Below, in pieces: positions 1-64,000 of a stretch of DNA of 64,000 nt. How positions within the stretch are numbered: the first letter of the stretch is position 1; each line of letters starts with the position of its first letter. Source of the stretch: an uncultured virus (IMG/VR IMGVR_UViG_2891407665_000020) (lineage: Duplodnaviria; Heunggongvirae; Uroviricota; Caudoviricetes); the IMG/VR virus record IMGVR_UViG_2891407665_000020; one strand, written 5' to 3'. The notes beneath the pieces were generated by a model. The model did no database searches. It was not told the DNA's origin and was given only the letters and a program-made list of their open reading frames with translations. The translations under genes were made by a program, and so were the position numbers.

Positions 1-1
1 C

Positions 2-568
2 CCTGAAGGGCAGATCATGGGGTATATTTCCAATGAGCTAACTATCGCGGAGGACGCGGCACGGTATCTTATTAAGAAATACCACAGTTATCTGCCGGAT
101 ATTGTGGCAGCTGTGAATACGCTGAAACAGTTTAGCTTTGTGGATAAGCAAATTGCCAAACGCTACTCCCCGGAAGCAAACCCTCTAGCACTTTATGAAC
201 TTGTTGGCTACCTTATAGGGTACAATTCCCGCATTACGTATAATGAGGCAGTCCATATTGTTTACAATTACAGATACGGCAGCGCGCACTTACTTACTTA
301 TTTGTCTGAGACACTTATGCAGTATGTGTTGGTGTACGAACAGATTGAACTTGGGCTGCTAAGTGCAGAGAATGTCACAGAATTTAAACGGGGCGCTAGC
401 ATAAATGAGATAAAAGATTTGAATAGCTATCAAATCCTTCGGATGATTGATAGCTATTCGTCTGTTTCAATGGAAAAACTGTGGTATGTCTATCTAAAGG
501 TTAAAAGCATCAAAAAAGACAGGTATTCCCTGTATAAATTAATTTACTTATTGAAGTTAGGCAAGTAA
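2..568 (+). CDS. DNA polymerase III delta (HolA)-like clamp-loader subunit, 5'-truncated by the window edge
   Basis: The frame is open upstream of the ATG at 17. ELTIAEDAARYLIKKYHSYLPDIVAAVNTLKQF...LALYELVGYL follows the HolA domain II/III pattern (I..dAa..L....g.dl..l..el.kL...iF.l.dal). The C-terminal LWYVYLKVKS...SLYKLIYLL also fits. Confidence 0.5.
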   Translation, partial: PEGQIMGYISNELTIAEDAARYLIKKYHSYLPDIVAAVNTLKQFSFVDKQIAKRYSPEANPLALYELVGYLIGYNSRITYNEAVHIVYNYRYGSAHLLTYLSETLMQYVLVYEQIELGLLSAENVTEFKRGASINEIKDLNSYQILRMIDSYSSVSMEKLWYVYLKVKSIKKDRYSLYKLIYLLKLGK

Positions 569-578
569 GGAGGTTGTC

Positions 579-1538
579 ATGGAGTTTATTGAGTTATTAA
601 CTGTAACAACAGAAAAAGGGGAAGGCGTTTTACTGGAAGAATGCGGCAGGCAGTACGGGCAGCTGCGCGGGATATACGTATACCTGAGCGAAAAAGATTA
701 TGCTTCTGTGCATGATTATATTGACTCTAATATAAGCAGGGCTGAAAACTGCAAGTCTAATTTTAAGAAGCAGCCCGCTGTGATTATGGGGATGTTACTA
801 ACCATGCTCGGTTATAAGAGTTATACAGAGTATGTGGTACAACGCCTTGGCGGACTAGATAATACTCTCGAGTATGCGAAAGGCATTCGGGAAATCGATC
901 GATTTTTAGATGAGGATGATTCTGATGACGCAGTCGCTGACGAGGAATTTATGGAGTATTTAAAAAACAGGGAGGCACATGGTACCGAAGAGGGTGTGGA
1001 CGGAACTGATTGTCATGGAAATGAAGCAAGTATTAGCGTGGAGCATGTCAGTACCGGTAAGAGTGGCAGCATGGATGTGTGCGATAATGGGGAATGCGAT
1101 AGCACTGAGGAAAGCGATAACGGGGAAGCCATCGCTGATGCTGGCACAGGCAGCAATAACCAGCCGGCAGGGCAGGAATACTGCAGTACAACAGATTCTT
1201 ATAAGGATAATGAATTTGCGGCTCAAACTGCTACTGAGCCATGTAAATCTTATAAAGAAAGTAACAGTGGGGATAGAGCCAGTAATTCTAAAATCGAAGA
1301 GTACCTTGAGAAGCTCTTACGCATAACAGAAAGCACACTTGCACTTCTGCAGAACCGTTCTGATACCACAGAAGATGGCGAGAAAACAGAAAGCAGCCAG
1401 TTGGGGGATACGGATGCTGATGTTATAAAAAGCGCACTGCTTAAGGCGCTTGATAGGGCAGACCTGGAAGATGTTTTCTATACAGGTTCCGATTTATTGA
1501 ACGATATCCTAGCATTAATAGAGGAGGTGATTCTGTGA
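579..1538 (+). CDS. Hypothetical protein with a long acidic disordered central linker
   Basis: 319-aa ORF, AGGAGG RBS, D/E/S/G-rich middle. Confidence 0.8.
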   Translation: MEFIELLTVTTEKGEGVLLEECGRQYGQLRGIYVYLSEKDYASVHDYIDSNISRAENCKSNFKKQPAVIMGMLLTMLGYKSYTEYVVQRLGGLDNTLEYAKGIREIDRFLDEDDSDDAVADEEFMEYLKNREAHGTEEGVDGTDCHGNEASISVEHVSTGKSGSMDVCDNGECDSTEESDNGEAIADAGTGSNNQPAGQEYCSTTDSYKDNEFAAQTATEPCKSYKESNSGDRASNSKIEEYLEKLLRITESTLALLQNRSDTTEDGEKTESSQLGDTDADVIKSALLKALDRADLEDVFYTGSDLLNDILALIEEVIL

Positions 1539-2176
1539 GCAAGAAAGACCGGGAGAGTTTTTATATTCTAGGTTTCATTCTAGGGATGATTGCAATCTGT
1601 TTAGTGGTGCGTTATAGCGCAAAATTTATTAATCCCTTGTACCTTGGCATTTTTGCTGTAATTGTACAGGTATTTATTATAATGCCGCGCATCGCTAAGA
1701 TGTATTACAAGATTATGGGCGCAGACCTTGGGTTTCAGGCTTATGTTCCGATTTATAATGAGCTGGCTATTTACAGTCCGGTGATGGCGAATGTGTCCCT
1801 TGTGATTTGGCTATTGGACGCCCTTATTCTAGGAATGAGCTGTATAGAAAATAGTGTATACGAATCTATACTCGGGATGCACGCTGCGTTTAATATTACG
1901 CACTCCCTTATCTGGGCTGCCATACTGGTGTACCTTGTGCAATGCCTGGTGCGCGGTATAGCAATGTGCCAGGTTTCATCTGTCGTATACAGAAAACGTG
2001 CTGAGTTTTATCAAGCGCCAAACAAGACTACGGTATTCAGGGTGTTACAGCTCTTCTTGTATTTTATACCGTTTATCCGTGTGTACTCTTTTTGTGTACT
2101 CTTTGATAAGTTGTACACCATGACAAAAGTCAGCCATTACAAAGAACGAAAACAATATTCTATGGAGGAAGAATAA
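1535..2176 (+). CDS. Polytopic membrane protein
   Basis: About 5 hydrophobic segments; AYVPIYN and FIPFIR motifs reminiscent of DUF5684-type membrane proteins; GTG start with GAGGAGG RBS. Confidence 0.75.
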   Translation: MSKKDRESFYILGFILGMIAICLVVRYSAKFINPLYLGIFAVIVQVFIIMPRIAKMYYKIMGADLGFQAYVPIYNELAIYSPVMANVSLVIWLLDALILGMSCIENSVYESILGMHAAFNITHSLIWAAILVYLVQCLVRGIAMCQVSSVVYRKRAEFYQAPNKTTVFRVLQLFLYFIPFIRVYSFCVLFDKLYTMTKVSHYKERKQYSMEEE

Positions 2177-3112: not shown

Positions 3113-3122
3113 GAGGAACAGT

Positions 3123-3290: not shown

Positions 3291-3298
3291 GTGCCGAG

Positions 3299-4854: not shown

Positions 4855-4876
4855 AGGTCAACATCTCTAGTATTTA
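4845..4876. terminator. Inverted repeat / probable intrinsic terminator
   Basis: TAAATACTAGAGGT-caac-ATCTCTAGTATTTA, overlapping the stop codon. Confidence 0.55.
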
Positions 4877-4919
4877 TTATAGTATACAGGGTTAAACCCG
4901 GAAAGTAGAGGATGCAAGA

Positions 4920-8135: not shown

Positions 8136-9084
8136 GAAAAAGCTGATACAAAACTACTATGAGACGCACGGTTCATTCGACCGTATAACAACAACTGAAA
8201 CAGGTGTGCTGTTGCAGGACATAGAATCTGTAATGGAAGAATGCTATAAGATTTTAGGATATAAACCCTGCAGCGGGTATACGGCAAAGCAATGCCATGA
8301 TATACGGATTGCAATAAAAAAGGAAGATTTAACATTTTTGTACGATGTACTTGGTGTAGTAAACCTACAGGAAGCTCTTGAAAAGGCACAAGGGCTGGGG
8401 ATTATACAAGAACGCGAAGACAGCGATAAGTCACCTTTCCGGTACAACCACTCGTTGGAACGTTACAGTAGCGTGCTGGCCCGGTATTTTAGGATAACAA
8501 AAGATATTATCCAGTTTCGGACAGCCATTCCCTTATGCTATGCTATAGATAGTTTAAAGACAGAACCTAAGAAGCTTTTAAAGAATATAAAAGCTATCTA
8601 TGAAGGCAATCAGAGTCTAGTTAAGTTTTGCAATGATGGAAGTTCCCCTTATGTTTATAAAGGTGTTTTTCATGTAAACCGCAATTTCTCTGACAAGGAG
8701 GAAAAGACGGTCATACTTGACGCACTGAAACTGGCAACGGGGCTTTCACTTGGTATTAATTCGGAGATTGTGAAATCTCCTTATAAGTTTGCAATGCTGC
8801 CCTTTGATAATACAGAAGAGTATCTAGACTTGTTGGAAAAGGCAGAGGTTCTAAATACGACCTATGCCGGATTATTCTCTAGAATAGGCATAAATGTCCC
8901 TGATTATACGGGTATTTACTGTGCATTGAGGATTATCCCGGTCATCGCTTATGAGAAAGTGTTCTTTTTTACTGAAGAGTCCACAGAAGAGGCCCCCTTA
9001 GCAAAAACAGAGCTTTCCAGTTTCAAGCTGCTGCTCAGTAATATGATGGCGGGAGGTGCGGAAAATGCAGTATGTGCTGTTTGA
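8122..9084 (+). CDS. Hypothetical protein
   Basis: 320-aa ORF, GAGGTG RBS, overlaps both neighbours. Confidence 0.8.
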   Translation: MKLIEKKLIQNYYETHGSFDRITTTETGVLLQDIESVMEECYKILGYKPCSGYTAKQCHDIRIAIKKEDLTFLYDVLGVVNLQEALEKAQGLGIIQEREDSDKSPFRYNHSLERYSSVLARYFRITKDIIQFRTAIPLCYAIDSLKTEPKKLLKNIKAIYEGNQSLVKFCNDGSSPYVYKGVFHVNRNFSDKEEKTVILDALKLATGLSLGINSEIVKSPYKFAMLPFDNTEEYLDLLEKAEVLNTTYAGLFSRIGINVPDYTGIYCALRIIPVIAYEKVFFFTEESTEEAPLAKTELSSFKLLLSNMMAGGAENAVCAV

Positions 9085-9712
9085 CGTGGAAACCACAGGC
9101 CTTTCCAAATACGATGAAGTGATCCAGTTCTGCTGTTTTATTATGGATGGGCAGCTGCACAGGTGCAGTAATATGGTTGATTTTTATAGTATGTCAACTC
9201 AGCCAATTACGCAGGGCGCTTTGCAAAAACACCATGTTACGCTTGGGAGGTTGCGTGAATTGTCCAAGGGCGTCTTTTTTGAGGAGAGCTTTTACAAACT
9301 TGCCAAGACCTTTGAACGGGACTGTACGTTTATTTATTTCAGTTCTTCCAATTTTGATACTCGCCTTGTCAACCAGACTCTCCAGAACGCAAATCTCCCA
9401 GCTTATAATTTCGGCGACCGCATTAACACTTTGAGGAGTGTGGAAGGCCATCATTGCTTTGACCTGCAGTCGGCGGTTTCAAAATACTATGGGATTCCAG
9501 GTGGAAGAGTAAGCCTTGAAAAAGCGGTAAACCTTGTAACAGACGGGAATGTGAATTTAGTAACTCAGAGATATAAGAATTTCAATAAAGTGATTTCAGC
9601 AAAAAACAAAGAGTTGGCCTGCTCAGAAGAATTATTATTCCATAATGCAAGATTTGACGCATTTGTGTTGTGGTATATTTTACATAAGATAGGAGATTCG
9701 TTTGTAACCTGA
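9065..9712 (+). CDS. DEDDh 3'-5' exonuclease (DnaQ/epsilon-like)
   Basis: Exo I FDVETTGL..DEVIQ, Exo II NFD, Exo III HNARFDA; GGAGG precedes the ATG at 9065. Confidence 0.88.
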   Translation: MQYVLFDVETTGLSKYDEVIQFCCFIMDGQLHRCSNMVDFYSMSTQPITQGALQKHHVTLGRLRELSKGVFFEESFYKLAKTFERDCTFIYFSSSNFDTRLVNQTLQNANLPAYNFGDRINTLRSVEGHHCFDLQSAVSKYYGIPGGRVSLEKAVNLVTDGNVNLVTQRYKNFNKVISAKNKELACSEELLFHNARFDAFVLWYILHKIGDSFVT

Positions 9713-11628: not shown

Positions 11629-11898
11629 ATGGCAGCTTCTGTTTTTAATGAAGAGTGCACACAGGCTATCAAGAATGCTATTGATTCTTGTGAAGAGTTA
11701 ATCCCGAACCTTAAAAAAGGCGTTGCAAACTGTGCTGATATTTGCAAGGAGTCTGGTGCGGTTGAACTCGCGAAAACTGCGGATGGAGTTTCGGATGGTG
11801 TGGATAACCTGATTAGCACGATGGGTGAGCTTATTCAGACACTCACCACTCTTCTTCAGTATTATCAGAAAGTGCAGCGTGCAATGGGCAACGCATAA
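11629..11898 (+). CDS. Small helical-hairpin protein, WXG100-like
   Basis: 89 aa, two amphipathic helices around a central ESG turn, located between FtsK-like genes. No literal W-x-G. Confidence 0.5.
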   Translation: MAASVFNEECTQAIKNAIDSCEELIPNLKKGVANCADICKESGAVELAKTADGVSDGVDNLISTMGELIQTLTTLLQYYQKVQRAMGNA

Positions 11899-11929
11899 GT
11901 AAAAACAGTTAGAACGGAGGTGTATTATA

Positions 11930-12265
11930 GTGGCTATTCAGCTTAATGAAGAAAGGCTCAATGAGTCTGTTGGAATCGTTAAGGGTTGTATGAACTCTAA
12001 CGTGCTGGATGTTATGCAGAACTTGTCAGCAGCGATTATGCCTGAGGCTGGTACAAACCAGTTAGTTGATCAGGCAATCGAAGACTGCCGTAAGTTCCAG
12101 AATCAGTTCAATGAAACTACGAAAGGGCTTCGTGATTTCATTACTGAGATGGGCAAAGTTCTGGATATTAAGGAATACCTGGATAAGCTCAGCATTGGAA
12201 CTGTTAGCAACAGGGACACGAGCATTGTGACAGGTAAGATTGATGCTGATGCTGTAATCCAGTAG
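11930..12265 (+). CDS. Small helical protein, WXG100-like
   Basis: 111 aa; MAIQLNEERL N-terminus resembles the EsxA-type MA.I.v.peel; central EAG turn; GGAGG RBS and GTG start. Confidence 0.5.
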   Translation: MAIQLNEERLNESVGIVKGCMNSNVLDVMQNLSAAIMPEAGTNQLVDQAIEDCRKFQNQFNETTKGLRDFITEMGKVLDIKEYLDKLSIGTVSNRDTSIVTGKIDADAVIQ

Positions 12266-18945: not shown

Positions 18946-18969
18946 ACAGATAGAATGGGAGTGATACAA

Positions 18970-52067: not shown

Positions 52068-53276
52068 TTGGACACAAACAAAACAAACCTTGATAGCTTG
52101 CGCAGGAACACCATAGTAGGACTTTTGGCATTATTTGCAGTTTACAGCATTTTACTTAATGCAAGCTTTACAGTGACACATGCAAAATCCCTTACCGAAG
52201 TTTTTACTACGGATGCCTTTACAGGTTCATGGGAAGTGTTTTCAAAGTTTAATTTTCTAGGTAAACTTATGAATTTCATACTTTCAGCATTTAGTTTGCT
52301 TGGGCTGTTTATAGTTGCATGGCAGAGACTGGTTACATTGCTGTACCTAAGCGGGCGTACATTATTCGACCGGGTGCATGAGATAAAGTCCTCTGGCAAG
52401 GGGCAGAAGTTCCTTGGGCTTCCAGCGATTTTCCAGAGCACGATAATGAACAGCCAGTACGGCACTGGGGCGGATTCTATTGTCTCTTTTTTACTGTCCC
52501 TTTTGCCGGATGTAAAAGAGGCCTCTGACTATAGTGAAGGCAATAGACAATATAATCTAGAGGATACAGATTCTGTTACACAGTATATTTTGAAGGTATC
52601 TATCCCAACCATTATGATTATTTTCTTCTTCACGATAGGGTTTAACGGGACATACTTCCAGATTTATGGGAATATCGTGGAGGGCATGGCAACAGTCGCA
52701 GATAATTTTGTTGACACCAAACTATCGAAGTATGTTGATAGGCTTATTAACAAAGGTGCTGCCTATAAGTTTGCATATGCCGACGATGGAAGCAATATAG
52801 GGAAGATGAGGCAGTCAATTGCGTCAGATATTTACACGAAGGTGCTGAAAAATATAGAGAACCCTAATTCAGACGCCACTTTGTTAATAGGGCAGCAGGT
52901 AGATTCAATAGTAGAACAGCATTACACAGCAGAGGCTATTTCGGCAGCTCTCGGGTCTGTTAACGATTCAAATGAGTCGAAATTAAAGTGGGATGGCAGT
53001 GACGAGACTGCGAAGAATGTGCAATATTCAGTGACTGTGAATGCACGAAGCGAGCCTTATTCAGGTGAGGTCGCAGGCGCACCATTTAGCCTTGCAGACC
53101 TTTCCTGCGGTTTCCCTATGAGTGGGACATACGCAAATGAGGGTGGCATAGGATATGTCCATGTCGTATTTAATAAGAAGAATAACTCAGAAGAGCATAA
53201 TTATTTCCAGACGCCGGATGAGAAAACTTCTGGTGGGCGTGGGAAGGATGCTAGCAATCCTGAGAAAGCAGACTAA
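52068..53276 (+). CDS. Membrane protein of the conjugation region
   Basis: 402 aa, three hydrophobic segments then a soluble domain; AGGAGG RBS, TTG start. Confidence 0.75.
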   Translation: MDTNKTNLDSLRRNTIVGLLALFAVYSILLNASFTVTHAKSLTEVFTTDAFTGSWEVFSKFNFLGKLMNFILSAFSLLGLFIVAWQRLVTLLYLSGRTLFDRVHEIKSSGKGQKFLGLPAIFQSTIMNSQYGTGADSIVSFLLSLLPDVKEASDYSEGNRQYNLEDTDSVTQYILKVSIPTIMIIFFFTIGFNGTYFQIYGNIVEGMATVADNFVDTKLSKYVDRLINKGAAYKFAYADDGSNIGKMRQSIASDIYTKVLKNIENPNSDATLLIGQQVDSIVEQHYTAEAISAALGSVNDSNESKLKWDGSDETAKNVQYSVTVNARSEPYSGEVAGAPFSLADLSCGFPMSGTYANEGGIGYVHVVFNKKNNSEEHNYFQTPDEKTSGGRGKDASNPEKAD

Positions 53277-53346: not shown

Positions 53347-56300
53347 ATGCACAAAAAATTAAAGAAGGGTACAGCTCTTTTTATGGCACTGTTAATTTTT
53401 ACAGCTATGCTGGCGCCATCGCAGGAAGCATTTGCCAACAGCGTAACAGATGGAGAGAAAGCGGCTATAGAAACGCGATGCAAAGCATTGCAGGAAAAGA
53501 TAGCTGAGAATGCTGCGGGCGAATATGGCCTGCTGTGTAAGCTGAAAGCTGTGCTGGAGTACCAGATGTATGTTAAGTTTATCTACGATAACCGGCTTGG
53601 TTTCACAAAAAATGAAATTGAGAACTATGTAGGTAACTTACGCAGGTATATAAAAGCTTTCAACGAAATGTATGGCAAAAAACCAAAACAAAAGTCCTTT
53701 ACCCCGCTGAAGCTCGGTCAGGTAAAAGTAAAAAAAGATCCAGGCATGGCTATACGCGGTAATGTGTGTGATAAGATACCGAAATATGTAGAGGATATCT
53801 TGGAGTCTGTACAAAAGGATGTTGTACAGGGTAAGACTGATGCGGAGAAGGAAAGGGCAATGAAAAAGAGCGACACGATACTCCGTATGTGTTTTGATAT
53901 CTTGTCTACTTATGACGAGACGATTACAGAGTTGACAAACCAATCTGCATTAAGCAGCAATGGCGGTGAGAAGGAACTTTTTATTATTGATGGCACTAAA
54001 GACAATTCCAAAATCACCCAAGTATTATCTGCAATACGGGAAAAATACACAGAACTGCTGGAGTACGGGGAGGCTTTATCGGCAAACTACCATGTGACAG
54101 GCAGCATAAGCGATATTGACGTAACAAAGCCGGCTATTGAGATATTCAGTAACGCATCTACGGATGAGGACGGGAACCTTGTGTTTAATGGTGAACCTGA
54201 GCTAAATGCCAGTTATATGGCGCTCATTTCGGCGTCCTCAGTTTACAGGCCGTTTGAGTCTTATGTCGGTGCGGAAGAATTTTTAGCATCCGTTTCTTAT
54301 TTGTGTTCAAGCGAGAAAGCTGCAGCCAAGTTATGTAGCGCTTATGCATCCACAAAGGACTATAGAAAACCATTATACAGAAGGAAATTAAACCAGGCTG
54401 GCGAGCCCACAGGCGTTGCAGAGATCATTACGCTCCAAGAGTTTTTGGATGCTATAGTTTCCGGTGAATCTTTTGCACTCGTTTCTATTGACGGTATATT
54501 CAAGCTCAATCAAGATACACAAACATGGGTATACTCCACCGCGGGTCCTGAAGAAACGAAAGACCCGGCCGGGGAGGCAGAGGAAACGGATGACGCATTA
54601 GACACCGATGATACCGAAGGGGAGCCTGCTGCGGGTAACGATACAACTGCCTCTAATAGTATGCTTAAGACTATCTATAGATCGCACCAGAATAAGGCCG
54701 TAGCCACTAACGGCAGTACGCCAGCCACCAATGGGTTTAATGATATGGAGTCGCTATACAGCAATGTTGCGGAGGAGTTTGATGAGGAACCCAAGGAGGA
54801 CGACGCTGATGACAGTAACCCTGCGGCAACTCCTAGTCAGACAAATTATGACACAGCTTATAAGAAAGCGCGTTCGGAGACGACAATTGACGCTTATGAG
54901 GAGATTACTGATATAGCGAGGATGAGTGAACCGCTCTTACTTTTTGGGAGTTCCAAAGCGCGTGCTGTTGATAATATGACTACAGCGATATTAACTAATG
55001 TGCTAAAAAATATTGGGACGATTGACAGCATTAAGAACCGTGATACGCGCTTTGTCTATGTAAACCCATACGGTGATATTGTTTTAGATGATAACCTTGT
55101 CTTACTGCCTGGGATTGCGAATCCAATCTTTTGGAAAGACGGGGGGCAGTATGTTCCTTATAATGCCGCCATAATGAACAATTACCCATCTGCGTTGTAT
55201 AACCATTCTTTCTTTAAGCTTTATAATAGCTCTGATATTGGTAAGTATATGTTTTTTGGGGAGTCATCATCCTCGCAGTCCCTGTTAACAGACAAAGAGG
55301 TTAGCTACACAGGGTATTCGCTTTATCGGACGCGGTCGCTTGATGGTTTTGACGAGAAACAGCTGTTTATGCCAGAATTGGACCTGGAGTTTGAAATGAG
55401 TGATGGCTCTGAGGATTCTCTGGAGTTGCTGCGTACAAAGACCTTTTTGTACAATAGTGGGACGGATTTTACTCCTGGGAAATTAGCGCCTTTTGTCCGC
55501 ATCACTAACGAGACTGTGAATGGCAGCTATGTCTTTCCCTACCGGGTAGAGGAGGACCCAGGATTCTCACTCGCAAAAATCATTGTAAGCAATATGTACA
55601 ATAAGCTTATGCATGATGAGCGCAGCAAGGAGTCTAAAAACCAGGGGCGCTTGAATGATAATTATGTTATTCAAAATATTCTCCAGCAGCAGCTTGACGG
55701 CACTTCTAACCCGGAAGCATACAGTAAGAACGCATTGCTTCAGTATGATAGTTTTGTCAAGAATACACCGGAGCGTATGAAAACAAATATTGCAAATGTG
55801 GCAAATGGCATTTTAGAGTACGCCGGGGACGTAGATGGCATTATTGGGATTAAGGACACTTATACGCTGCATATTGTCGGGAGGCTTTTTAATGCCATTC
55901 GTGAGAATATTGCCTTTATACTTGTGCTGATCGCTATTTTTGTAGTTATTTGCTTTATAAAAAACAATAATAGTTTATTCAATTCTATTCTTGTAGGCGC
56001 ATTATCTATGGCTGTCGCTTATGTATTTATTATCGTGGTTCCAGTTTATCTGCCTTATATTTACAATAGTATAACAAACAATGTTTCGCAGCCTCTTGCA
56101 TTTGAGACATTAGGTACGCAGCTTGAGAAAGAGAGCATTTATCCGACAGCAAATTTATCCTTGGATGCAAAAAGGAATGTCAATTTAACAGCTTCTTCAA
56201 TTTCCCTGTACCGTTACCCATTCTATGATTTGAGCGGGATTGAAAAAAATCTTTCTCTTGATGATATGGATGAAGCGACTGGCGGTAATTCTTATGTCAT

Positions 56301-57765
56301 TAATGAGGATTCCGGTGTTTACCTTGAGAACAGCACTATTAAAGTAAGTCTTTCCAGTTTGATGGGAACCTTGAAAATTGACGGTGGATATGCTAGTGAA
56401 GCAGGTAATGGTGTCTATCAGCTTAAGGCTTATAAGACAGCTTCCAATAATATAGACTTTTACACTCCGTACTACCAGATGGTCGATGGCTTTATAGACA
56501 AGCTGAACACATTGATTGAGGTGTACCGTGTACCACGGACAGTCTCAACTTATGCAAAAGGTACGCAGAAGGATAAGTTTGCTGTTAATTGCTATTTAAC
56601 TTCTGCGCCGTTTGTGACGCCTGGCAAATATAGTTCCATGATTGACTATGAACAAGAAAAGGCAGCCGGGCTGACGGATGAGGAGATTAAGGAATGTGTT
56701 GAGTATGATGAGCAGCTCGAAGATGTACTCACCAAGGCATATGGGAACAATGATGATTGGCTGGGAATTACAGACGTCATAGAGGCGCCAACTTTGACAG
56801 AGAATGCAGATTTGCGCGGGACATTGTGGGCTGCCGAGTTACAGAAGCAAGGGTATTATGATGAGAATTGGAAACTGAACACTGAACGCTGTGCAGAGCT
56901 GGTTGGCTATGTGAACTATGTTACAAAGAAATTTGTTTATGATATTGAGGATTTGACTACGAAATTGAGCGATGATACCTTGATTAAGCTGATAACACTC
57001 AGAGCGCTTTTAGCTCTTAACCAGCACGCATCTGACGCAGTTGGGAAAATGTATCCTCTGTTTGTCAATTATGATAATTTTAAGCTTGGCGGGATTATGA
57101 CCGCGGTGTACACGGATGATTTCCAGTCTTTTGCCAGCATGGATATGGATGTTGCAAATTATGTGATAGATAAATATGGTATGCTTTCTCTGCTTTTCTA
57201 TGTGATTGCAGTCTTGGAGATAGTAGTATTTTCTTTCATTGTCCGCATACTATTTCCCCTTATCTATGTCAGCTTTGGGGCGCTTTTGCTTGCAAAGCTT
57301 TTCTCCAACAGGAATATACATCCGCTAGTTCGTGGCTACTTTAAGTTTTCTGCGTTTGTCTTCGCAGAATTTAGTTTATTCTGCGTGAGCCTGACACTCA
57401 TAAGGCAGCTGAGGAGCAGCTTTATCAGCATTATATTCCTGTTCCTCATCATGACAGCTCTTGTATGGCTGTTGTTCAAATTACTCCTTTCCTGGTTCGA
57501 GGACAAGGCTAATTTAGGTAATAGCAGTTTCAATGTATCTGTGGTAGATGCCTTTGCGAAAGCTAAAAACCGAATCATAAATAGCATGACCGTAAGGAGA
57601 GCCGTAATGCCGACAGACAGTGACAATAGTATGCAAGAAGATACCGAAAGTTCTGGATTCAGTGAATACGCTGGGACAGCGAGTGTGGATGACTTGTATA
57701 AGAATGCGGGTACTTATACCAGTGGTGCAGACGAATCAGATTTTGATGATTATGGGGGTGATTAA
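53347..57765 (+). CDS. Very large secreted/polytopic membrane protein; candidate mating-channel (VirB6/TcpH-like) component
   Basis: Signal peptide, large extracellular region, TM pair near aa 855-905, and a TM bundle near aa 1280-1385; upstream of the VirB3-like and VirB4 genes. The ORF is solid, the function is inferred. Confidence 0.55.
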   Translation: MHKKLKKGTALFMALLIFTAMLAPSQEAFANSVTDGEKAAIETRCKALQEKIAENAAGEYGLLCKLKAVLEYQMYVKFIYDNRLGFTKNEIENYVGNLRRYIKAFNEMYGKKPKQKSFTPLKLGQVKVKKDPGMAIRGNVCDKIPKYVEDILESVQKDVVQGKTDAEKERAMKKSDTILRMCFDILSTYDETITELTNQSALSSNGGEKELFIIDGTKDNSKITQVLSAIREKYTELLEYGEALSANYHVTGSISDIDVTKPAIEIFSNASTDEDGNLVFNGEPELNASYMALISASSVYRPFESYVGAEEFLASVSYLCSSEKAAAKLCSAYASTKDYRKPLYRRKLNQAGEPTGVAEIITLQEFLDAIVSGESFALVSIDGIFKLNQDTQTWVYSTAGPEETKDPAGEAEETDDALDTDDTEGEPAAGNDTTASNSMLKTIYRSHQNKAVATNGSTPATNGFNDMESLYSNVAEEFDEEPKEDDADDSNPAATPSQTNYDTAYKKARSETTIDAYEEITDIARMSEPLLLFGSSKARAVDNMTTAILTNVLKNIGTIDSIKNRDTRFVYVNPYGDIVLDDNLVLLPGIANPIFWKDGGQYVPYNAAIMNNYPSALYNHSFFKLYNSSDIGKYMFFGESSSSQSLLTDKEVSYTGYSLYRTRSLDGFDEKQLFMPELDLEFEMSDGSEDSLELLRTKTFLYNSGTDFTPGKLAPFVRITNETVNGSYVFPYRVEEDPGFSLAKIIVSNMYNKLMHDERSKESKNQGRLNDNYVIQNILQQQLDGTSNPEAYSKNALLQYDSFVKNTPERMKTNIANVANGILEYAGDVDGIIGIKDTYTLHIVGRLFNAIRENIAFILVLIAIFVVICFIKNNNSLFNSILVGALSMAVAYVFIIVVPVYLPYIYNSITNNVSQPLAFETLGTQLEKESIYPTANLSLDAKRNVNLTASSISLYRYPFYDLSGIEKNLSLDDMDEATGGNSYVINEDSGVYLENSTIKVSLSSLMGTLKIDGGYASEAGNGVYQLKAYKTASNNIDFYTPYYQMVDGFIDKLNTLIEVYRVPRTVSTYAKGTQKDKFAVNCYLTSAPFVTPGKYSSMIDYEQEKAAGLTDEEIKECVEYDEQLEDVLTKAYGNNDDWLGITDVIEAPTLTENADLRGTLWAAELQKQGYYDENWKLNTERCAELVGYVNYVTKKFVYDIEDLTTKLSDDTLIKLITLRALLALNQHASDAVGKMYPLFVNYDNFKLGGIMTAVYTDDFQSFASMDMDVANYVIDKYGMLSLLFYVIAVLEIVVFSFIVRILFPLIYVSFGALLLAKLFSNRNIHPLVRGYFKFSAFVFAEFSLFCVSLTLIRQLRSSFISIIFLFLIMTALVWLLFKLLLSWFEDKANLGNSSFNVSVVDAFAKAKNRIINSMTVRRAVMPTDSDNSMQEDTESSGFSEYAGTASVDDLYKNAGTYTSGADESDFDDYGGD

Positions 57766-57767: not shown

Positions 57768-58748
57768 ATGGTTTATCCAATTAGCGTGCATAAGCAAGCA
57801 CAGAAGGCTGGAAAGGTCACACAAGGTGATATGATGCGCTTTGGCACGACCCTTTTTATTATGTTGTCTGTTGGGTTATTCTTCCTCTTACAGTGGATTC
57901 TAAAAGTGTATCTTGGGGCTAGTATGTGGCTGGCGCTGTTAATCACCTTGTTAATAGCAGCAATTATAGGAAGCGTGTTACTTCGGTATTTTGTTTTTGA
58001 CGAACCTACCAGGGTGCAGGAATACGAAAATCAGAGCAATGACTCTTTTGCAAAATATGTTTTTACGCGCAAAGACATTGTTAATCCCATTGACGTACAT
58101 GGGGAAGAATGCCAGTGTTTTGAATTTACCGATGGGTCACAGGTATGCGTGCTGCAATTCCGGTACGGGAGTAATGATGATACAAAAGCAGCAGAGACCC
58201 TCAGACAGCTGGAAAAATGCTTCGCCGTACTAGGTGAGGAGAATATGCCATTCAGGACTATCAGTATGCGTGAGGACTTCAGTGACTCTGTAGAATGCGA
58301 CAATATTATACGCCATTGCAATTCTATAGAAGACAAGAAGCTAGCCAGGCATCTACTGTCTGTGGCAAACAATGTGCTAACAGAAGTACAGCGCCAGGGG
58401 AATGTCATTACCTTATACCTTATGATATGCCCGAAGGCAAATTACCATTTAGCAGACCTTGAAGCTGTACTACGAAAGGTTTTCGCTGTACTACAGTCCA
58501 GCCCAAATGCATTCCGGAGTATCGAGTGCCTCAACCAGCAGCAGCTTCTGAAACTGTATAAAGATTTTTATGGATTGGAAACGATAGACCTTTCCACAAT
58601 GCGGGTATTAGAATTATCTAATGACACAAAGGAGAGTTTTGGTAAGGTAGTATCGCTTTACAAGATGCAAACGGAGTCTGGTAAGACGTTGGTCAATAAG
58701 GACGCTATACTTGGTAATTTCAGGACTAATACACGGGAGTGTAAATAG
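57768..58748 (+). CDS. PrgI/TcpE (VirB3-like) TM pair fused to a TrsD-like soluble domain
   Basis: Two N-terminal TMs, then a soluble domain ending ECLNQQQLLKLYKDFY, typical of proteins encoded just upstream of Gram-positive VirB4. Confidence 0.55.
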   Translation: MVYPISVHKQAQKAGKVTQGDMMRFGTTLFIMLSVGLFFLLQWILKVYLGASMWLALLITLLIAAIIGSVLLRYFVFDEPTRVQEYENQSNDSFAKYVFTRKDIVNPIDVHGEECQCFEFTDGSQVCVLQFRYGSNDDTKAAETLRQLEKCFAVLGEENMPFRTISMREDFSDSVECDNIIRHCNSIEDKKLARHLLSVANNVLTEVQRQGNVITLYLMICPKANYHLADLEAVLRKVFAVLQSSPNAFRSIECLNQQQLLKLYKDFYGLETIDLSTMRVLELSNDTKESFGKVVSLYKMQTESGKTLVNKDAILGNFRTNTRECK

Positions 58749-58792: not shown

Positions 58793-58811
58793 AAAAATAA
58801 GGAGGATTTCT

Positions 58812-60161
58812 ATGATTAAGCTAATGATAGTTGCTGGCAGGCAGTCTGCAAAGCTGGCCGAACACCTAAACAAAACAGGGGCATTCAGGGCAGACTATGT
58901 GTACCATTCCCTTGCGCAAAACCAGGAAAAAATAAAAAATTCCATAATAAAGGTTGATAAGCTGTTATACATTTATCAGCCTGAGGAGGATAATGGGGTC
59001 ACTTCCATACGCGAGGATATGGTAATACTTCAAAAACTCATCATTTCCGATGAGTTCTTCAGCACGAATGAGGTGATTTTTATTCAGAAGAGCAGTTCTT
59101 TGTCCGAACAGGCAGCAGACTATTTTAATACGGTAATGAAAGAATGCACTGCGGCATTGCGCCAGGAAAGACACAAAAAGGCACAAATACTGTATAGCAT
59201 CGAGACTGTTGATGGCGTACTTAGCTTTCAGAGCATCCATAATTATCTGCTTGGCGTGACAGAAGCTGAAGATTTCCATAATACCATAGGTAAGGTATAC
59301 CGGTATGAGAAAGGGTCTGAGGCAACAACTGCTTATGTTGCAGCAGATACACGCAATAGTATAGTGGAGCCTTTTACTTTTGAGAATATTGATGATTATG
59401 AGAGGGCGCGGGATAACAGCATAAAGTTCGACCCCGGGCGTGTAGTACATGACAGTAAGGAAGATGAGCTAGAGACGATTGACTCCCCGGTATTCGGGAA
59501 GCTCCATATTAGCCGGGTATCGCCAGTTAAGAATACACTCCTATTGACCGGTGGCGATAAGACTGGGAAGAGTATGTGGGGTGCGGCACTTGCTGTGTCC
59601 TCTATGTCCGCTAAAGTACGGACATTCGTTCTTGACCTGACAGTATCAGGGAATATACGGAACACCTTCAAAAGCTTTGACACAGAATTTAGCGAAATTG
59701 ATATGTTATCGATGCTGCACCCTAACTCAGAGACTGAATCATTCATTACACTATGCAGGCCAACTGCTATAGAAATGGAGGTAGTTTGCGAGTTTTTGCA
59801 GCTGCTTTATAGGGAGGAGGTCTCTTCAAAGTTCGACCAAGTTCTTATCCTGGCTGACAGGGCTTCCCTGCCGGGCATAAAAAGGCACATACAGCCAAAC
59901 CTGAAAATGGTATTTTATTGTATGTTCCCACTAGAATGTGATTTGCCTAAAATCAAACAATCCATTCTTGAGTGTGGCGGCGCACTTTGCACTATTTTAT
60001 GCAGCAATGCACTACAGATTGGTGTTAAGGACAAATATCTTCATCCATCAGAGTTAAAACCACAGGCGCCACATGATGTTAAGGTAGTAGCCCCAATACA
60101 GTTTACAAATATGAATCTAGACAGCACATTGTACGAGAAATTAATGGGAGGTGATTGCTAG
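58812..60161 (+). CDS. Pseudo-receiver plus MinD/CpaE(TadZ)-like P-loop protein
   Basis: MIKLMIV receiver-like start; LLLTGGDKTGKS deviant Walker A; FVLDLT; FDQVLILAD. Confidence 0.6.
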   Translation: MIKLMIVAGRQSAKLAEHLNKTGAFRADYVYHSLAQNQEKIKNSIIKVDKLLYIYQPEEDNGVTSIREDMVILQKLIISDEFFSTNEVIFIQKSSSLSEQAADYFNTVMKECTAALRQERHKKAQILYSIETVDGVLSFQSIHNYLLGVTEAEDFHNTIGKVYRYEKGSEATTAYVAADTRNSIVEPFTFENIDDYERARDNSIKFDPGRVVHDSKEDELETIDSPVFGKLHISRVSPVKNTLLLTGGDKTGKSMWGAALAVSSMSAKVRTFVLDLTVSGNIRNTFKSFDTEFSEIDMLSMLHPNSETESFITLCRPTAIEMEVVCEFLQLLYREEVSSKFDQVLILADRASLPGIKRHIQPNLKMVFYCMFPLECDLPKIKQSILECGGALCTILCSNALQIGVKDKYLHPSELKPQAPHDVKVVAPIQFTNMNLDSTLYEKLMGGDC

Positions 60162-61462
60162 TGAATTTAGTGAAAAAAGATGCTGGCAGGGAGCAGGAAC
60201 TTTATATTATGTTAATTGACCGCTGGTGCAAGAACACCATCCGGGCAAGCATCTCTAACAGTATGCGAAGTAGGATTATCTTTATCAATGACTTTGTGGA
60301 AATCACTGAAGAGATACTGAGCAGGTCAAGGACTTTGTTCGTATTGGAGTCTTTTATGAACAACCATACGGCGGTTGCATTCTTGTCGCTTTACAAAAAG
60401 TTAATGGGTTTGGATATTATTTACCTTGGGTGTGATAGAGCGCTCTTTAGTAAAGTTTCCCCTATTTGCAGGGTTTATCCTTGCGATGTCACAGGGTTGA
60501 GCATGGAGTTGCTAGTCAGCGCTGCATACGATGACGAGTCTATGAAGAGCAAAGACTGTACAGACAATTACTATGAGGAAAGTAGAGCGTTTGCCAAGAG
60601 TCTGGTGGACAGCAGTTCCAGTGACGAAATAAGGAAACTGGCGTGCGACTTCCTTTCATTGGAAGATGAACGGGAGTCCCACTTAAGCAAGCGTATCAAG
60701 CTTGCTTCGGATTTATCAGATGCACTTACTGATAACAGCCGACTATTGGAAGAGAACAGAAAACTTGCCGAGGGGTATAAGAATATCCTCGCCGACTCCT
60801 ATAGCTTAAATCATGCATTGCGGGATTACGAAGGGATACTGTCAAAAGAGATGTACAAGAAAATTAACTTAAGTGAGTACCAAGACCGGCCGTTGATTTT
60901 ATACTTTAAGGAGTTTGAAGAGCTGCTTGGGTTTGATATGTTTATAAGTACGTTATACGAAATCTTTAGGATGCAGAATAAAAACTCAGTCAAAGTACTT
61001 ATGCTTTTTGATAGCTACACAGCAATGCGAATGCGTGTTCTCCCGGATTATTTTACGACACTGTACAATTCTTATAATACCAGGCAGGTTATACTTTGCG
61101 ATTTCCTTGCGAAGTCTGGAGATGCTTCCGGGGTATTGGATCAGCTGCTACGCAATAAGGAAAATCTGAACGTTCTTTTAATCTTTGACTGCAAAAGTTT
61201 ACCGGCCACGGTCCTTTCGGGGCAATACTTACAGTTCAATATTTGTCGGGACTGCAGACACCTTGCCGCCTACGATTTAGTGGACGAGAACACTATAGTG
61301 AATGGGCATGGCGGGGTTAATTACCTGGAGTTTGACCATGCGCAGTACGAAAGGGAACTTCCGAATTTTGTAAACCAGACTGAGAAATTTTTATACCTGT
61401 CCTCACAGCAGATTTACCAAAATATATTAACACTGACAAAATTATACAAAGACAGGATGTAG
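60161..61462 (+). CDS. Hypothetical protein (alpha/beta N-domain, coiled coil, alpha/beta C-domain) upstream of virB4
   Basis: About 433 aa; GGAGG precedes the GTG at 60161. Confidence 0.75.
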   Translation: MNLVKKDAGREQELYIMLIDRWCKNTIRASISNSMRSRIIFINDFVEITEEILSRSRTLFVLESFMNNHTAVAFLSLYKKLMGLDIIYLGCDRALFSKVSPICRVYPCDVTGLSMELLVSAAYDDESMKSKDCTDNYYEESRAFAKSLVDSSSSDEIRKLACDFLSLEDERESHLSKRIKLASDLSDALTDNSRLLEENRKLAEGYKNILADSYSLNHALRDYEGILSKEMYKKINLSEYQDRPLILYFKEFEELLGFDMFISTLYEIFRMQNKNSVKVLMLFDSYTAMRMRVLPDYFTTLYNSYNTRQVILCDFLAKSGDASGVLDQLLRNKENLNVLLIFDCKSLPATVLSGQYLQFNICRDCRHLAAYDLVDENTIVNGHGGVNYLEFDHAQYERELPNFVNQTEKFLYLSSQQIYQNILTLTKLYKDRM

Positions 61463-61473
61463 GGAGGTGTGCT

Positions 61474-63453
61474 ATGGCAAAGTTTTTTCTACTTTCTATG
61501 TATGCGGAGATTTTTGCAAATTGGGTAAGCGGGGGCAGACTTATAAACCGTGATAAAATTTCCGCACTTGGCCTGAAGTCGGTATACAATCAGTTTATCA
61601 CGCGTAATTGGATTACAAAAGCTTGGTGCATCACGGCGTTGCCCGTAGCATACGACCATAACTTACAAGAAGGGATACAGGCCAAGATGCGTGAGGCTTA
61701 TCCGCATGTGCGCACTATCACACACACCTATAATAAGCCCGTAAATGTGAATGTGAACTCACGTATCTATAAGCAGCTCATGGGCAGCATAACCTCCGCT
61801 TATGACGAGTATGCTTCCTATTTTTCGGAGTTAAGGGATGATGAGAAGTTGACTGGGAAAACCGGATATAATCCACAAACAGGGCGCAGATATTATATAA
61901 ACAAGGAACAGTTGCAGAAAATCAAGGAAAAACGCGATTCATACCATTATGTATACCGGGCAGTATCCTCTGGCAAGCAGATGTTTGAAACATACCTTTT
62001 TGTACAGGCGTCCGCAAAAACGCGACGCGAGCTTGAACGTTACGGAAAACGGTTAGTTGGCCTTTTGCAGCAGGATAAGATTTGCGTGCGTGAGATCAAA
62101 GGGAATATTGGGGAATATTTGTCTAACTTCTGCCCGGCGTCTTTCCAGCGTGGGAATATAAAAAATACTTCAAGTTTTCTCGTAGGCCAGGAAGCGCTTG
62201 CATTCCAGATGCCTTATAGGCTGAAAGGGCTTATTAACAGCTCTGGGATGCTCCTTGGTATGGACTGGCAGACCAGACTTCCGTTTGTGTATAACCCTTT
62301 GGAGACTCCGGATGGACAGGTCGTGCTTGTTGCCGGTCGTACAGGTTCAGGAAAGACTTACACTTGCTTTAATATTGCACAGCAGGGGATTGGTTATGGC
62401 ATACACAGTTCCGCTATAGACTTCAAAGGGCGAGAATGGTGCAAGCTTGCCGAGTTTGTAGACACGAAAGTGATTTCAATGGATGGGGCAGACCCAGTGT
62501 TTGTAAATACGTTGCGCTTGGACGACTTAAACTGCACAAAGGACAATTGCAAGGAGATGTTTAGCAACGCAGTGACCGGTACTGTGATGCTGTTATCACT
62601 TATGGTAGATTTACAGCCCAACGAAGGGAACGCTGTTGATTTGCATACCATACTTGAAAAAGCAACTATGAAGCTGTACAGCAGGGAAGGCGTGTTCCAG
62701 GACAACCCAGAAACATTTAGCAGGACAGCATCAATGACTTACCAGGACATAATTGATATTGTAGCCGATTTGGAAAGCACGGGAATTTATAATGAGAACC
62801 AGGTTAGGATTTGTAATTTAATTAAACTTAGGTGCTCAAATTACTTCTCCTCTGATGGGCGGTATAGCGACCTTATGCGGAATGAGGTAACCGTGGGGGA
62901 TATTCTTAACACGCCGCTCATTGTATATTCATTCAATAAAAACAGTAATGGCGAGCTTGATTTGCTTGACACCATTAAGGTATTTATGGTGCAGTTCCTA
63001 GATAGCAAAAAGCATGAGATTCGTAAACAGCAGCATTTGCATACATTTGCCTTCTATGAAGAGCTGCAGCGTTGCACCAGCTTCACTGTATTGCTCCGGT
63101 ATATAAGCAGCCGCGTAACAGGGTCAAGGAGTTCAAATGTGTCCGTGTTCCTTTTGCTTAATGCCATTTCGGCGCTTGATTCTGATGCAATGGCACAAAT
63201 ACGTTCTAATATTACAACTAAGATTATTGGGAAAGTGACAGAAGAAGATAAAAAGGTTTTAGTGGAAAAGTTCGGGTGTGGCGCCATTGAAAAGTATATT
63301 GACTTAATAATAGATACGTCAAGTGTTTTATACCGGAATTGTTTTGCCATCCAGTATGAAACAGGGCACAATATGGATAAGGCGCTATTTAAAACTATCC
63401 TCCCTGATTATATGTGGGAAAAGCTGAATACCAGGGATAGCGTGGGTATGTGA
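61474..63453 (+). CDS. virB4: VirB4-family conjugation ATPase
   Basis: GMLLGMD...PFVYNP, VLVAGRTGSGKT, AIDFKGREW, VNTL, FAFYEELQ, IRSNITTKIIG. Confidence 0.88.
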   Translation: MAKFFLLSMYAEIFANWVSGGRLINRDKISALGLKSVYNQFITRNWITKAWCITALPVAYDHNLQEGIQAKMREAYPHVRTITHTYNKPVNVNVNSRIYKQLMGSITSAYDEYASYFSELRDDEKLTGKTGYNPQTGRRYYINKEQLQKIKEKRDSYHYVYRAVSSGKQMFETYLFVQASAKTRRELERYGKRLVGLLQQDKICVREIKGNIGEYLSNFCPASFQRGNIKNTSSFLVGQEALAFQMPYRLKGLINSSGMLLGMDWQTRLPFVYNPLETPDGQVVLVAGRTGSGKTYTCFNIAQQGIGYGIHSSAIDFKGREWCKLAEFVDTKVISMDGADPVFVNTLRLDDLNCTKDNCKEMFSNAVTGTVMLLSLMVDLQPNEGNAVDLHTILEKATMKLYSREGVFQDNPETFSRTASMTYQDIIDIVADLESTGIYNENQVRICNLIKLRCSNYFSSDGRYSDLMRNEVTVGDILNTPLIVYSFNKNSNGELDLLDTIKVFMVQFLDSKKHEIRKQQHLHTFAFYEELQRCTSFTVLLRYISSRVTGSRSSNVSVFLLLNAISALDSDAMAQIRSNITTKIIGKVTEEDKKVLVEKFGCGAIEKYIDLIIDTSSVLYRNCFAIQYETGHNMDKALFKTILPDYMWEKLNTRDSVGM

Positions 63454-64000
63454 TGCGTAAAAAAGGTAACGGCTTTGGGAAATTTCTTCTGTCAATAATT
63501 CTAGCAACTTCCATGTTTTTTCTAGCAGCATTATCAGATCTTGATTCTTCAATGATGTACGTGCTCCTTGACCGCACAAGATTCAGCCCCGCCGGGATGT
63601 TATTTGATGGGCTACATGTATTCACAGAGGATGTGGAAGACAACAGCTCTAATAATGGTGCAGTGTCCTACGATGGGCTAAATTATGCTCTGATAGACCA
63701 GCTAAGCAATTCTTATGTCAAGAATCTGCTGAAATTATACCAATCATCAGCTTCAGGTGAGCTGGATAACTTTAAAAGCCATGTCACAGTGACAGGGCTT
63801 TTAACAACGCAGGTTTCCTCTACAGGGTATTATCCGAACACGGCGCTCCCCTTGTCTTATCTGCCTTTTGAGAACAATAAAGTCATTTGGGGGGAACCAT
63901 ACAAGGGCGTATCAAAGGATGATATGACGCTGCGTACTTTTGGTACGCAGCAGTACCGGAAGATTGGCGGGGAGGAATATAACCAGCTGATGAATGAGAA
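63453..64000 (+). CDS. Secreted/membrane protein, 3'-truncated by the window edge (not in the ORF track)
   Basis: TGATG coupling to virB4; MRKKGNGFGKFLLSIILATSMFFLAAL signal/TM; frame open to the end of the window. Confidence 0.75.
   Translation, partial: MRKKGNGFGKFLLSIILATSMFFLAALSDLDSSMMYVLLDRTRFSPAGMLFDGLHVFTEDVEDNSSNNGAVSYDGLNYALIDQLSNSYVKNLLKLYQSSASGELDNFKSHVTVTGLLTTQVSSTGYYPNTALPLSYLPFENNKVIWGEPYKGVSKDDMTLRTFGTQQYRKIGGEEYNQLMNE

Follow-up and report, generated by a model that had tools for sequence, protein, structure and literature searches.

Several kinds of large mobile element resemble parts of the locus described here, a 64,000-nucleotide stretch of DNA (IMG/VR record IMGVR_UViG_2891407665_000020, hereafter the window) that lies within what we regard, with some reservation, as probably a giant integrative element of a Lachnospiraceae chromosome, conjugative in the manner of pXO16 and equipped with its own RNA polymerase (RNAP) and replisome. 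One of them, pXO16 (NC_018516, pBTHD789-1), is a ~350-kb conjugative plasmid of Bacillus thuringiensis sv. israelensis (PMC6199540) that is experimentally conjugative and highly coding, has few homologues, and has all its coding sequences (CDS) co-oriented, "suggesting a phage-like nature" (PMC9673590; PMC6199540). It transfers single-stranded DNA by a mechanism distantly related to type IV secretion systems (T4SS), its relaxase is not known, and aggregation is promoted by surface proteins (PMC9673590; PMC6199540); no plaques were found for it (PMC6199540). The conjugative Hodor megaplasmids of the human gut exceed 300 kb and encode Rep_3, ParB/ParM, SecYEG, trigger factor, a MOBH-like HD relaxase and VirD4; their VirB6 is hard to recognise, they have no TerL, and they were first filed among huge phages (PMC12934698). 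Jumbo phages of the phiKZ and AR9/PBS2 groups encode multisubunit RNAPs and PhuZ/TubZ tubulins (PMC7598289; PMC7824862).

The window corresponds to positions 184,354-248,353, minus strand, of contig C1 (310 kb) of assembly G000. Positions 1-143 kb of C1 are plainly chromosomal, with the flagellar regulon, mutS/mutL, mreBCD, minCDE, L21/L27, obg, the his operon and recU, and the gene arms and GC skew of the contig converge near 105 kb in what looks like a replication terminus. Then comes a gene for a large serine recombinase (C1:143,087-144,769; phrog_95, 2.5e-111), followed by ~150 kb of co-oriented, mostly unreadable genes that include the window. At the joint between element and chromosome (~C1:143,150) the recombinase gene adjoins a gene for an alpha/beta-type small acid-soluble spore protein (SASP), whose open reading frame (ORF; + strand, C1:142,980-143,213) matches Pfam with an E-value of 4e-26. 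Because this match ends at profile position 52 of 59 and an intact SASP paralog runs ~9 residues further, we placed the element inside a spore-protein gene; the recombinase ORF, on the opposite strand, overlaps the last ~63 nt of the truncated gene. An independent 13.4-kb metagenome contig from another study crosses the junction, and the junction stretch is present in mouse-gut metagenomes of about ten studies. The tetranucleotide frequency (TNF) composition of the element also differs from that of its own flank (r 0.78 vs 0.915). Contig depths (not copy numbers) differed between flank and element in two of the three covering metagenome runs (L008, C1:140,001-160,000; 17.6 vs 5.5-8.4 in X5 and 11.9 vs 17.8 in X16), a difference that could reflect presence/absence polymorphism or extra copies and is not proof.

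The far border was not found: there was no second copy of a 38-bp high-depth unitig (a candidate att core, lying in the conserved part of a SASP gene), and the 3' remnant of the truncated gene (~9 codons expected) was detected neither with a peptide motif allowing up to 2 substitutions in all contigs nor with a loose pattern in C1:288-310 kb. The element therefore extends at least to a Xer-type recombinase at C1:294,690 and possibly beyond the contig end, which gives it a size of no less than 151 kb and perhaps of more than 167 kb, with the window as its central third. No terminal overlaps that would suggest circularity were seen in C1 or in the contigs of three relatives, and we rejected the window as a free replicon, integrated as it is in a chromosome with a recombinase at the border; the autonomy claimed in the original prediction thus does not hold here. 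Close to the Xer-type recombinase we noted a DUF262/GmrSD (NsnA-like) gene split into overlapping ORFs of 102 and 523 amino acids (aa; C1:295,575-297,426), perhaps by a frameshift, which adjoins a CapP-like M78 peptidase and several DUF4116-repeat proteins.

Assigning a host called for caution. Assembly G000 is 94.9% complete, and 85 of the 137 chromosomal ORFs on C1 recur in other parts of the bin: C1:99-140 kb is collinear with C14:0.5-38 kb at no more than 40-78% protein identity, and C21 carries another copy of the flagellar regulon. Same-genus genomes match C14 (70-96%) and not C1 (an empty-site comparison with them gave no empty site), and the chromosomal part of C1 is a compositional outlier in the bin (r 0.915). 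Because of this collinearity, these matches and this composition, C1 appears to come from an organism other than the rest of the bin, and the chromosomal paralogs elsewhere in the bin are therefore not those of the element's host. Judged by sequence, C1 is most likely mis-binned and its host another Lachnospiraceae of the mouse gut; the C1 MutS matches "uncultured Robinsoniella sp.", a member of that family, at 83%. Host-type rpoB and rpoC were found nowhere in the whole G000 assembly, in which the element's own fused gene is the sole match to PF00562 and PF00623; a gap in the assembly is the probable reason, and we gave the absence no weight either way.

That fused gene, which lies outside the window, encodes the beta and beta' subunits of an RNAP as one 2,752-aa ORF (C1:261706-269964) with matches to Rpb2_6 (194 bits), Rpb1_2 and Rpb1_5, and with the motif NADFDGD intact at residue 1652; the motif falls within giant frames of 2,591-2,878 aa in four of four elements. 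The protein matches phrog_25354 and phrog_24349 at 1e-77 to 1e-88. Giant RNAP-like proteins form 1,041 clusters at E-values of 1e-10 or less, the best 120 of which all have beta and beta' domains, and some clusters hold more than 1,500 member sequences. An rpoA had been predicted in the window; the gene is there, as a divergent homolog of the alpha N-terminal domain (NTD) without the C-terminal domain (CTD) and not as a full rpoA. Alone the protein gives a weak match (NCBIfam rpoA, E-value 2.5e-4), and its family comprises 115 representative clusters, mostly of 190-235 aa. The family profile matched RpoA in the PDB with an E-value of 7.2e-14 over alpha residues ~28-230, all 55 matches with E-values below 0.01 were to alpha subunits, and RNA_pol_L was found in 11 of 51 family members; by these profile comparisons the gene at 42640-43278 is an alpha-NTD homolog lacking the CTD. 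A sigma-70-family protein and a GreA-N-like protein are encoded outside the window. In the open-access literature we found no description of a fused beta-beta' together with alpha in a mobile element.

The alpha homolog stands among replication and repair genes of the window, as follows.
9056..9712, + strand: DnaQ/epsilon-like 3'-5' exonuclease (Pfam RNase_T 4.6e-7; phrog_192 2.2e-11; weak PolC/epsilon matches in NCBIfam).
17099..18883, + strand: 594-aa divergent family-A polymerase-like protein (Pfam DNA_pol_A 2.6e-8, 33.7 bits vs a cut-off of 34.3), kept in three relatives.
22043..22825, + strand: Toprim protein, DnaG-type primase catalytic (Pfam, PHROGs, NCBIfam).
24828..27129, + strand: pair of SbcC-like (AAA_23) and SbcD-like (Metallophos) proteins (Pfam; NCBIfam, weak).
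30852..33209, + strand: UvrD/PcrA-like helicase (Pfam 5.9e-34; PcrA 189 bits vs a cut-off of 911).
33341..34741, + strand: RecJ-like DHH exonuclease, DHH motif at residue 91 (Pfam, PHROGs, NCBIfam).
40939..41970, + strand: 5'-3' exonuclease or flap endonuclease (Pfam 2e-16).
42640..43278, + strand: RNAP alpha-NTD homolog, 212 aa, no CTD (NCBIfam rpoA 2.5e-4; family profile against PDB RpoA).
45103..46314, + strand: DnaX-like clamp-loader ATPase (Pfam, PHROGs, NCBIfam).

The zinc ribbon of the primase is a separate gene outside the window (C1:171446-172069), where we also found a 1,341-aa PolA (the second family-A polymerase of the element, besides the 594-aa protein in the window), a DnaB-like helicase, an NAD-ligase-like protein, a RuvC-like protein and, for segregation, TubZ (which matches phrog_17961 and the PhuZ family phrog_4733) and a MinD/ParA-like protein. 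An Hsp70-like protein, a signal peptidase, a sortase and giant SpaA/TQ adhesins, one of which ends in SPKTG and a membrane anchor, are likewise encoded outside the window. The claim that genes for replication, transcription and envelope or transfer functions are the element's own was in this sense borne out, with a replisome and repair set, a fused RNAP, alpha and sigma. All recognisable replication and repair proteins of the window score far under the NCBIfam equivalog cut-offs (DnaX 127 vs 250 bits, RecJ 129 vs 397, PcrA 189 vs 911), in agreement with the prediction that these copies are far diverged. The altered motifs it mentioned are also present: the P-loop of the UvrD-like helicase is shortened to AGGGKT, and the Walker A of a GspE-like ATPase (35488-37194) reads GPIRTGKN in place of the expected GK[ST]. 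From their sequences, both proteins could be inactive or unusual NTPases. Just beyond the 3' end of the window we also noted a 252-aa protein (C1:181,104-181,862) that is the best-kept small core protein, at 30-49% identity in six genomes, and that has an N-terminal four-cysteine zinc ribbon and a non-significant similarity to DnaC.

In its 3' third the window has the look of an envelope machine, with a secreted surface protein, a polytopic membrane protein, small transmembrane proteins, two Walker-A proteins and a cell-wall hydrolase; we list these genes with two further ATPases of the window.
14898..17075, + strand: FtsK/SpoIIIE-type ATPase, Walker A at residue 135 (Pfam 7.6e-23; PDB YukB 3.8e-14, FtsK 2e-13, coupling protein 6o1w 5e-4).
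35488..37194, + strand: GspE/PilB-type (T2SSE) ATPase with the Walker A variant GKN (Pfam, NCBIfam), kept in three relatives.
46789..52026, + strand: 1,745-aa secreted SpaA-domain surface protein (Pfam; signal prediction).
52068..53276, + strand: 402-aa protein with about three transmembrane segments, adjoining the transfer genes in relatives too.
53347..57765, + strand: 1,472-aa polytopic membrane protein with a signal peptide and about six transmembrane segments (transmembrane prediction; relatives).
57768..58748, + strand: conserved 326-aa protein with two transmembrane segments (transmembrane prediction; relatives).
58812..60161, + strand: 449-aa Walker-A protein (non-significant similarity to ParA/MinD-class P-loops).
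60155..61462, + strand: conserved 435-aa protein (relatives).
61474..63453, + strand: 659-aa VirB4/TraC-like ATPase of the HerA-FtsK superfamily (protein atlas; Pfam at family level; 22-24% identity to pXO16 and other Bacillus plasmid proteins).
63450..64000, + strand: NlpC/P60 cell-wall hydrolase, 5' part of 702 aa; the gene continues beyond the window (C1:182796-184904).

In the protein atlas the 659-aa protein had matches with a feature score of 0.99 and a predicted-structure TM of 0.56-0.72, the ten best named matches all sharing the DUF87/AAA_10/P-loop_TraG set, and within its family DUF87 was found in 7 of 33 members and P-loop_TraG in 6 of 33. We therefore call it VirB4/TraC-like as a remote assignment resting in part on predicted structures, and the T4SS machinery of the original prediction is an equally remote call, made at the level of family and atlas and not of a Pfam model for the window protein itself. 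The FtsK/SpoIIIE-type protein is, by sequence similarity, a candidate DNA translocase or coupling protein, and the 1,472-aa polytopic protein might by inference have a VirB6-like role. Searches of the PDB with family profiles gave nothing significant for the VirB4-like, 449-aa, 435-aa, 252-aa, 838-aa and 459-aa families. Two other machines that had been predicted found no support. The GspE-like ATPase resembles GspE (2.2e-16), PilF and PilB and not VirB11, and it stands by itself, Pfam and NCBIfam scans of the element having given no match to a T2SSF platform protein, a pilin or a prepilin peptidase (A24). The FtsK-like protein (725 aa, one FtsK domain, no predicted transmembrane segment) matches YukB/EssC and FtsK about equally, reaches 65 bits as EssC vs a cut-off of 778, and has no WXG100, EssB or EsaA match to accompany it in the same databases. 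As each is a single ATPase whose partner components were not found, neither type IV pili nor type VII-like secretion is supported as a system.

Relatives of the element are widespread in assemblies. The VirB4-like protein has 85 homolog clusters (32-99% identity) on contigs of up to 342 kb, nearly all unnamed, and a pattern scan of 185,579 species genomes gave six loci, in Wujia, an Oscillospiraceae, the isolate Lachnospiraceae bacterium 47-T17, an Anaeroplasmataceae, a Clostridia metagenome-assembled genome (MAG) and a Clostridium MAG. All six are collinear with the 3' end of the window over more than 20 kb at 20-48% identity, and collinearity with Wujia (G031:C37) extends over ~130 kb, so the description of the window as the core of a large and very divergent element family was confirmed in six other Bacillota genomes. 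The family was carried by none of a sample of 398 other genomes of the class; IMG/VR held no relative, by single protein or by alignment, and 50,697 phage records held no match to the VirB4-like protein. Cultured isolates (Lachnospiraceae bacterium 47-T17, Paraclostridium bifermentans) carry the family as well, and its proteins, where named at all, are labelled "hypothetical protein".

Four relatives have the giant fused RNAP frame (2,591-2,878 aa) beside a host-type rpoB sequence (fragmented in G032), and in a fifth (G035) a normal rpoB is accompanied by a 1,520-aa frame that contains a divergent beta domain. Host rpoB, scoring 432-467 bits, thus coexists with the element copy in the relatives, the isolate included, and host rpoA and the alpha-like gene occur together in four of five. 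The relatives are flanked by chromosomal genes and end in tyrosine integrases beside chromosomal miaB or ispF; because they end in such integrases at other sites, integration modules have been exchanged among members. One relative ends in a trio of sigma-r4, HTH_16 and tyrosine integrase genes that resembles Tn916-type ends. The upstream arms of two relatives (G034:C1:1-35 kb and G031:C37:203-250 kb) carry variable cargo, including HicAB, ParE/RelB and Zeta toxin-antitoxins, Fic, ThyA, a dNMP kinase, PBP1 and a 3,938-aa protein with 23 SpaA repeats.

Compared with described systems, the element is nearest to pXO16 and certain other Bacillus plasmids. Among 72,556 plasmids the VirB4-like protein matched 25 records, 21 of them from Bacillus, and PolA matched 12 records at E-values of 1e-10 or less, all from Bacillus; the plasmids matched include those of ~350 kb in B. 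thuringiensis and of 215 kb in B. velezensis/amyloliquefaciens (NZ_CP076292, NZ_CP071971). The VirB4-like match in NC_018516 has 23.9% identity over 68% of the query (E-value 3e-11) and an FtsK/SpoIIIE protein in its neighbourhood. No close plasmid homologs, then, were found, the nearest being pXO16 at 22-27% identity. Like the element, both pXO16 and the 215-kb plasmids have all CDS in one orientation and few homologues in databases. They too encode a VirB4-like ATPase (22-24% identity) close to an FtsK/SpoIIIE ATPase, a giant protein and cell-wall hydrolases (the element and the B. velezensis plasmid each have such a hydrolase), with a clamp-loader-like AAA ATPase encoded upstream, and their PolA is likewise large (1,133-1,157 aa in the plasmids). 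Only 3 of 120 element proteins had tblastn matches in two Bacillus plasmid stretches, however, and an RNAP beta domain was not found in either Bacillus plasmid record, unlike in the element; moreover, pXO16-type replicons are free plasmids of Bacilli, whereas the element (in Clostridia) and three relatives are integrated in chromosomes. MOB-suite classes NZ_CP076292.1 and NZ_CP071971.1 as "non-mobilizable", yet their layout of VirB4-like, FtsK, PolA and hydrolase genes is as in pXO16, and by analogy they may be unrecognised conjugative plasmids.

A border integrase, an FtsK-like ATPase next to a VirB4-like one, a peptidoglycan hydrolase and a polytopic membrane protein are features that the element has in common with integrative and conjugative elements (ICEs) of Firmicutes and with pCW3-type (Tcp) systems; it departs from these in encoding an RNAP, a replisome and TubZ of its own and in having no relaxase that could be recognised. 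Typical ICEs are five to ten times smaller. Hodors resemble the element in their giant size, in residing in gut Bacillota and in encoding sortases, VirB4 and secreted surface proteins that are likewise giant (PMC12934698), but the Rep_3, ParB/ParM, SecYEG, trigger factor, relaxase and VirD4 reported for them were not found in Pfam scans of the element, and the Hodor paper has 0 mentions of "RNA polymerase" (PMC12934698); they are a parallel but different family. Jumbo phages share the multisubunit RNAP, a tubulin, replisome genes and dense co-oriented genes, but their RNAP is split over several polypeptides (PMC7824862) while the element's beta-beta' is fused and accompanied by an alpha-NTD homolog and sigma.

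These likenesses to phages raised the question of whether the element might instead be a giant temperate phage (a jumbo prophage or phage-plasmid) with virion genes too divergent to recognise, its RNAP, tubulin and replisome serving a lytic cycle and its VirB4/HerA-like ATPase packaging or some other task. Jumbo phages do encode multisubunit RNAPs and PhuZ/TubZ (PMC7598289; PMC7824862), the element's TubZ, fused RNAP and phage-type serine integrase all match PHROGs (as given above), several atlas clusters closest to the VirB4-like protein are labelled Uroviricota, and the genes are closely packed and run in one direction. PHROG "tail" labels (E-values 1e-5 to 1e-7) are few and fall on NlpC/P60, MBL and Ig-domain proteins; shared domains explain these without excluding a virion role. 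On the other side, terminase, portal and capsid matches (the first and last of which the original prediction had named as the mark of a jumbo phage) were found in 0 of 142 element proteins (PHROGs, E-value ≤1e-3) and in 0 of 109 end-region ORFs of relatives (Pfam), and PDB profile searches of three conserved unknowns showed no virion structures, all at a sensitivity limited to the level of hidden Markov models. Neither IMG/VR nor the 50,697 phage records hold a relative, the RNAP is fused and has an alpha homolog where the jumbo-phage enzymes are split (PMC7824862), a sortase, LPXTG-type adhesins, an NlpC/P60 hydrolase and FtsK-like and VirB4-like ATPases are present, and the only plasmid kin is the pXO16 type, for which no plaques were found (PMC6199540). 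We consider a phage unlikely. No stronger is the case for an integrated element that has lost transfer or never had it, a vertically kept "mini-nucleoid" island whose envelope module would serve adhesion, secretion or DNA uptake: it would fit the lack of a recognised relaxase and of a circular form, the non-canonical Walker A of the GspE-like ATPase and the rarity of the family in reference genomes (0 of 398), but the giant ORFs (2,752, 1,745 and 1,472 aa) are intact, gene order is kept across Lachnospiraceae, Oscillospiraceae, Clostridium and Anaeroplasmataceae at 20-48% identity, integration modules and insertion sites vary between members, and the element differs from its flank in TNF composition and, between samples, in depth, so that we hold it to be quite improbable. 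Finally, an ordinary chromosome or chromid, with these as the host's only gene copies, has in its favour that the fused gene is the sole rpoB/rpoC-type match in the assembly; yet that assembly is 94.9% complete with C1 apparently from another organism, the relatives, isolate included, hold normal rpoB and rpoA beside the element copies, and the element genes fall far under equivalog cut-offs, which leaves this explanation hardly credible.

Several observations nonetheless weigh against the integrated conjugative element that we favour. No relaxase family was found among the 54 window proteins and 88 other element proteins (Pfam, PHROGs, NCBIfam), and no oriT was recognised, though no search aimed at it was made; the window's own VirB4-like protein reached no Pfam family, its family profile matched no solved structure in the PDB, and its nearest atlas clusters carry the Uroviricota labels already mentioned. 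Neither an excised circle, an attP nor an empty attB was seen, the depth difference can be accounted for by SASP paralogy and strain mixtures, and the assembly break at the junction is explicable by multi-copy SASP genes. Virion genes could be hidden among the roughly three quarters of proteins that remain unread. Overall, the original prediction of a giant divergent conjugative element was upheld for the divergent element family and not for the free replicon, the pilus or the type VII-like machinery. If the element is a conjugative integrative element, we infer excision, transfer and the role of the polymerase to proceed as follows: the recombinase would excise the element as a circle, which would replicate and segregate with its own machinery while its own polymerase transcribed it, largely independently of the host; adhesins would keep donor and recipient together, DNA would pass through a pXO16/pCW3-like channel with a distant kinship to T4SS, powered by the VirB4-like and FtsK-like ATPases, and the element would then integrate in the recipient.

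The organisation of the window bears out what had been predicted. All 54 main ORFs (non-nested, ≥50 aa) lie on the + strand, as do 50 of 51 in an independent ORF call; neighbouring genes lie within 12 bp of each other at 36 of 53 junctions, including 24 overlaps, the coding fraction is ~0.96, and GC skew is positive in 32 of 32 two-kb bins. Co-orientation is 97-98% in the element vs 88-93% in the host chromosome arms of C1, and because those arms are themselves so biased, strand bias alone is not distinctive. The unrecognisable share, put earlier at about half, proved larger: 35 of 54 proteins have no Pfam family at E-values of 0.01 or less, and another 5 of the 19 matched have spurious sub-threshold matches alone, leaving about three quarters uninformative (PHROGs matched 12 of 54, NCBIfam 14 of 52). 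No tRNAs or Rfam families were found in the window, PADLOC returned generic UvrD/GajB and FtsK-domain similarities and nothing more specific, and no promoter motif common to 32 intergenic gaps was obvious, the gaps being mostly terminator-like hairpins. In short gaps (e.g., upstream of 12377, 18955, 45103 and 58812) a GC-rich hairpin and T run, with the look of an intrinsic terminator, directly precede the next ribosome-binding site. The remaining features of the window are as follows.
1535..2176, + strand: 213-aa protein with about five transmembrane segments, kept in the Wujia relative.
11629..12265, + strand: two small helical proteins of 89 and 111 aa upstream of the FtsK-like gene, with no WXG100 match.
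12377..14893, + strand: 838-aa conserved core protein with orthologs in three relatives (nothing usable from protein atlas or PDB profile).
18955..20415, + strand: predicted lipoprotein with a GDSL hydrolase domain and a VgrG3-C-like domain (Pfam; N-terminus), which may be a second wall-active enzyme or an effector.
20419..21216, + strand: NERD-domain nuclease (Pfam 9.5e-10).
We rejected the "LPLTG" of a 172-aa protein as a sorting signal, as no hydrophobic anchor follows the motif. In the chromosomal part of C1, two tandem flagellin genes (C1:38,265-40,190; protein matches at 100% identity) precede a ~28-kb island (C1:40-68 kb) with GT2/TPR glycosyltransferases, radical-SAM and sugar-nucleotide enzymes, which is probably for flagellin glycosylation.

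If the element is conjugative, its fused beta-beta', alpha homolog, sigma and replisome would make the boundary between giant viruses and plasmids or ICEs less sharp; to our knowledge plasmids and ICEs depend on the host RNA polymerase, and we found no exception in the literature. The orphan pXO16 system gains its first distant relatives outside Bacillus, in a family that is frequent in assemblies (1,041 RNAP-like, 115 alpha-like and 85 VirB4-like clusters), and because the family occurs in cultured isolates, transfer, excision and polymerase biochemistry are directly testable. More tentatively, and we think this doubtful as yet, the family might be a separate class of "mega-elements" in gut Clostridia that lack a capsid, integrate, move between cells by conjugation and carry a complete cell-type transcription core and a replisome, and that are therefore nearly host-independent in expression and replication. 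If this were true, such elements would be like a giant virus without a virion. Their polymerase could allow expression at once on entry into distantly related hosts, or could serve while host transcription is off, e.g., during sporulation, as is hinted by the insertion in a spore-protein gene.

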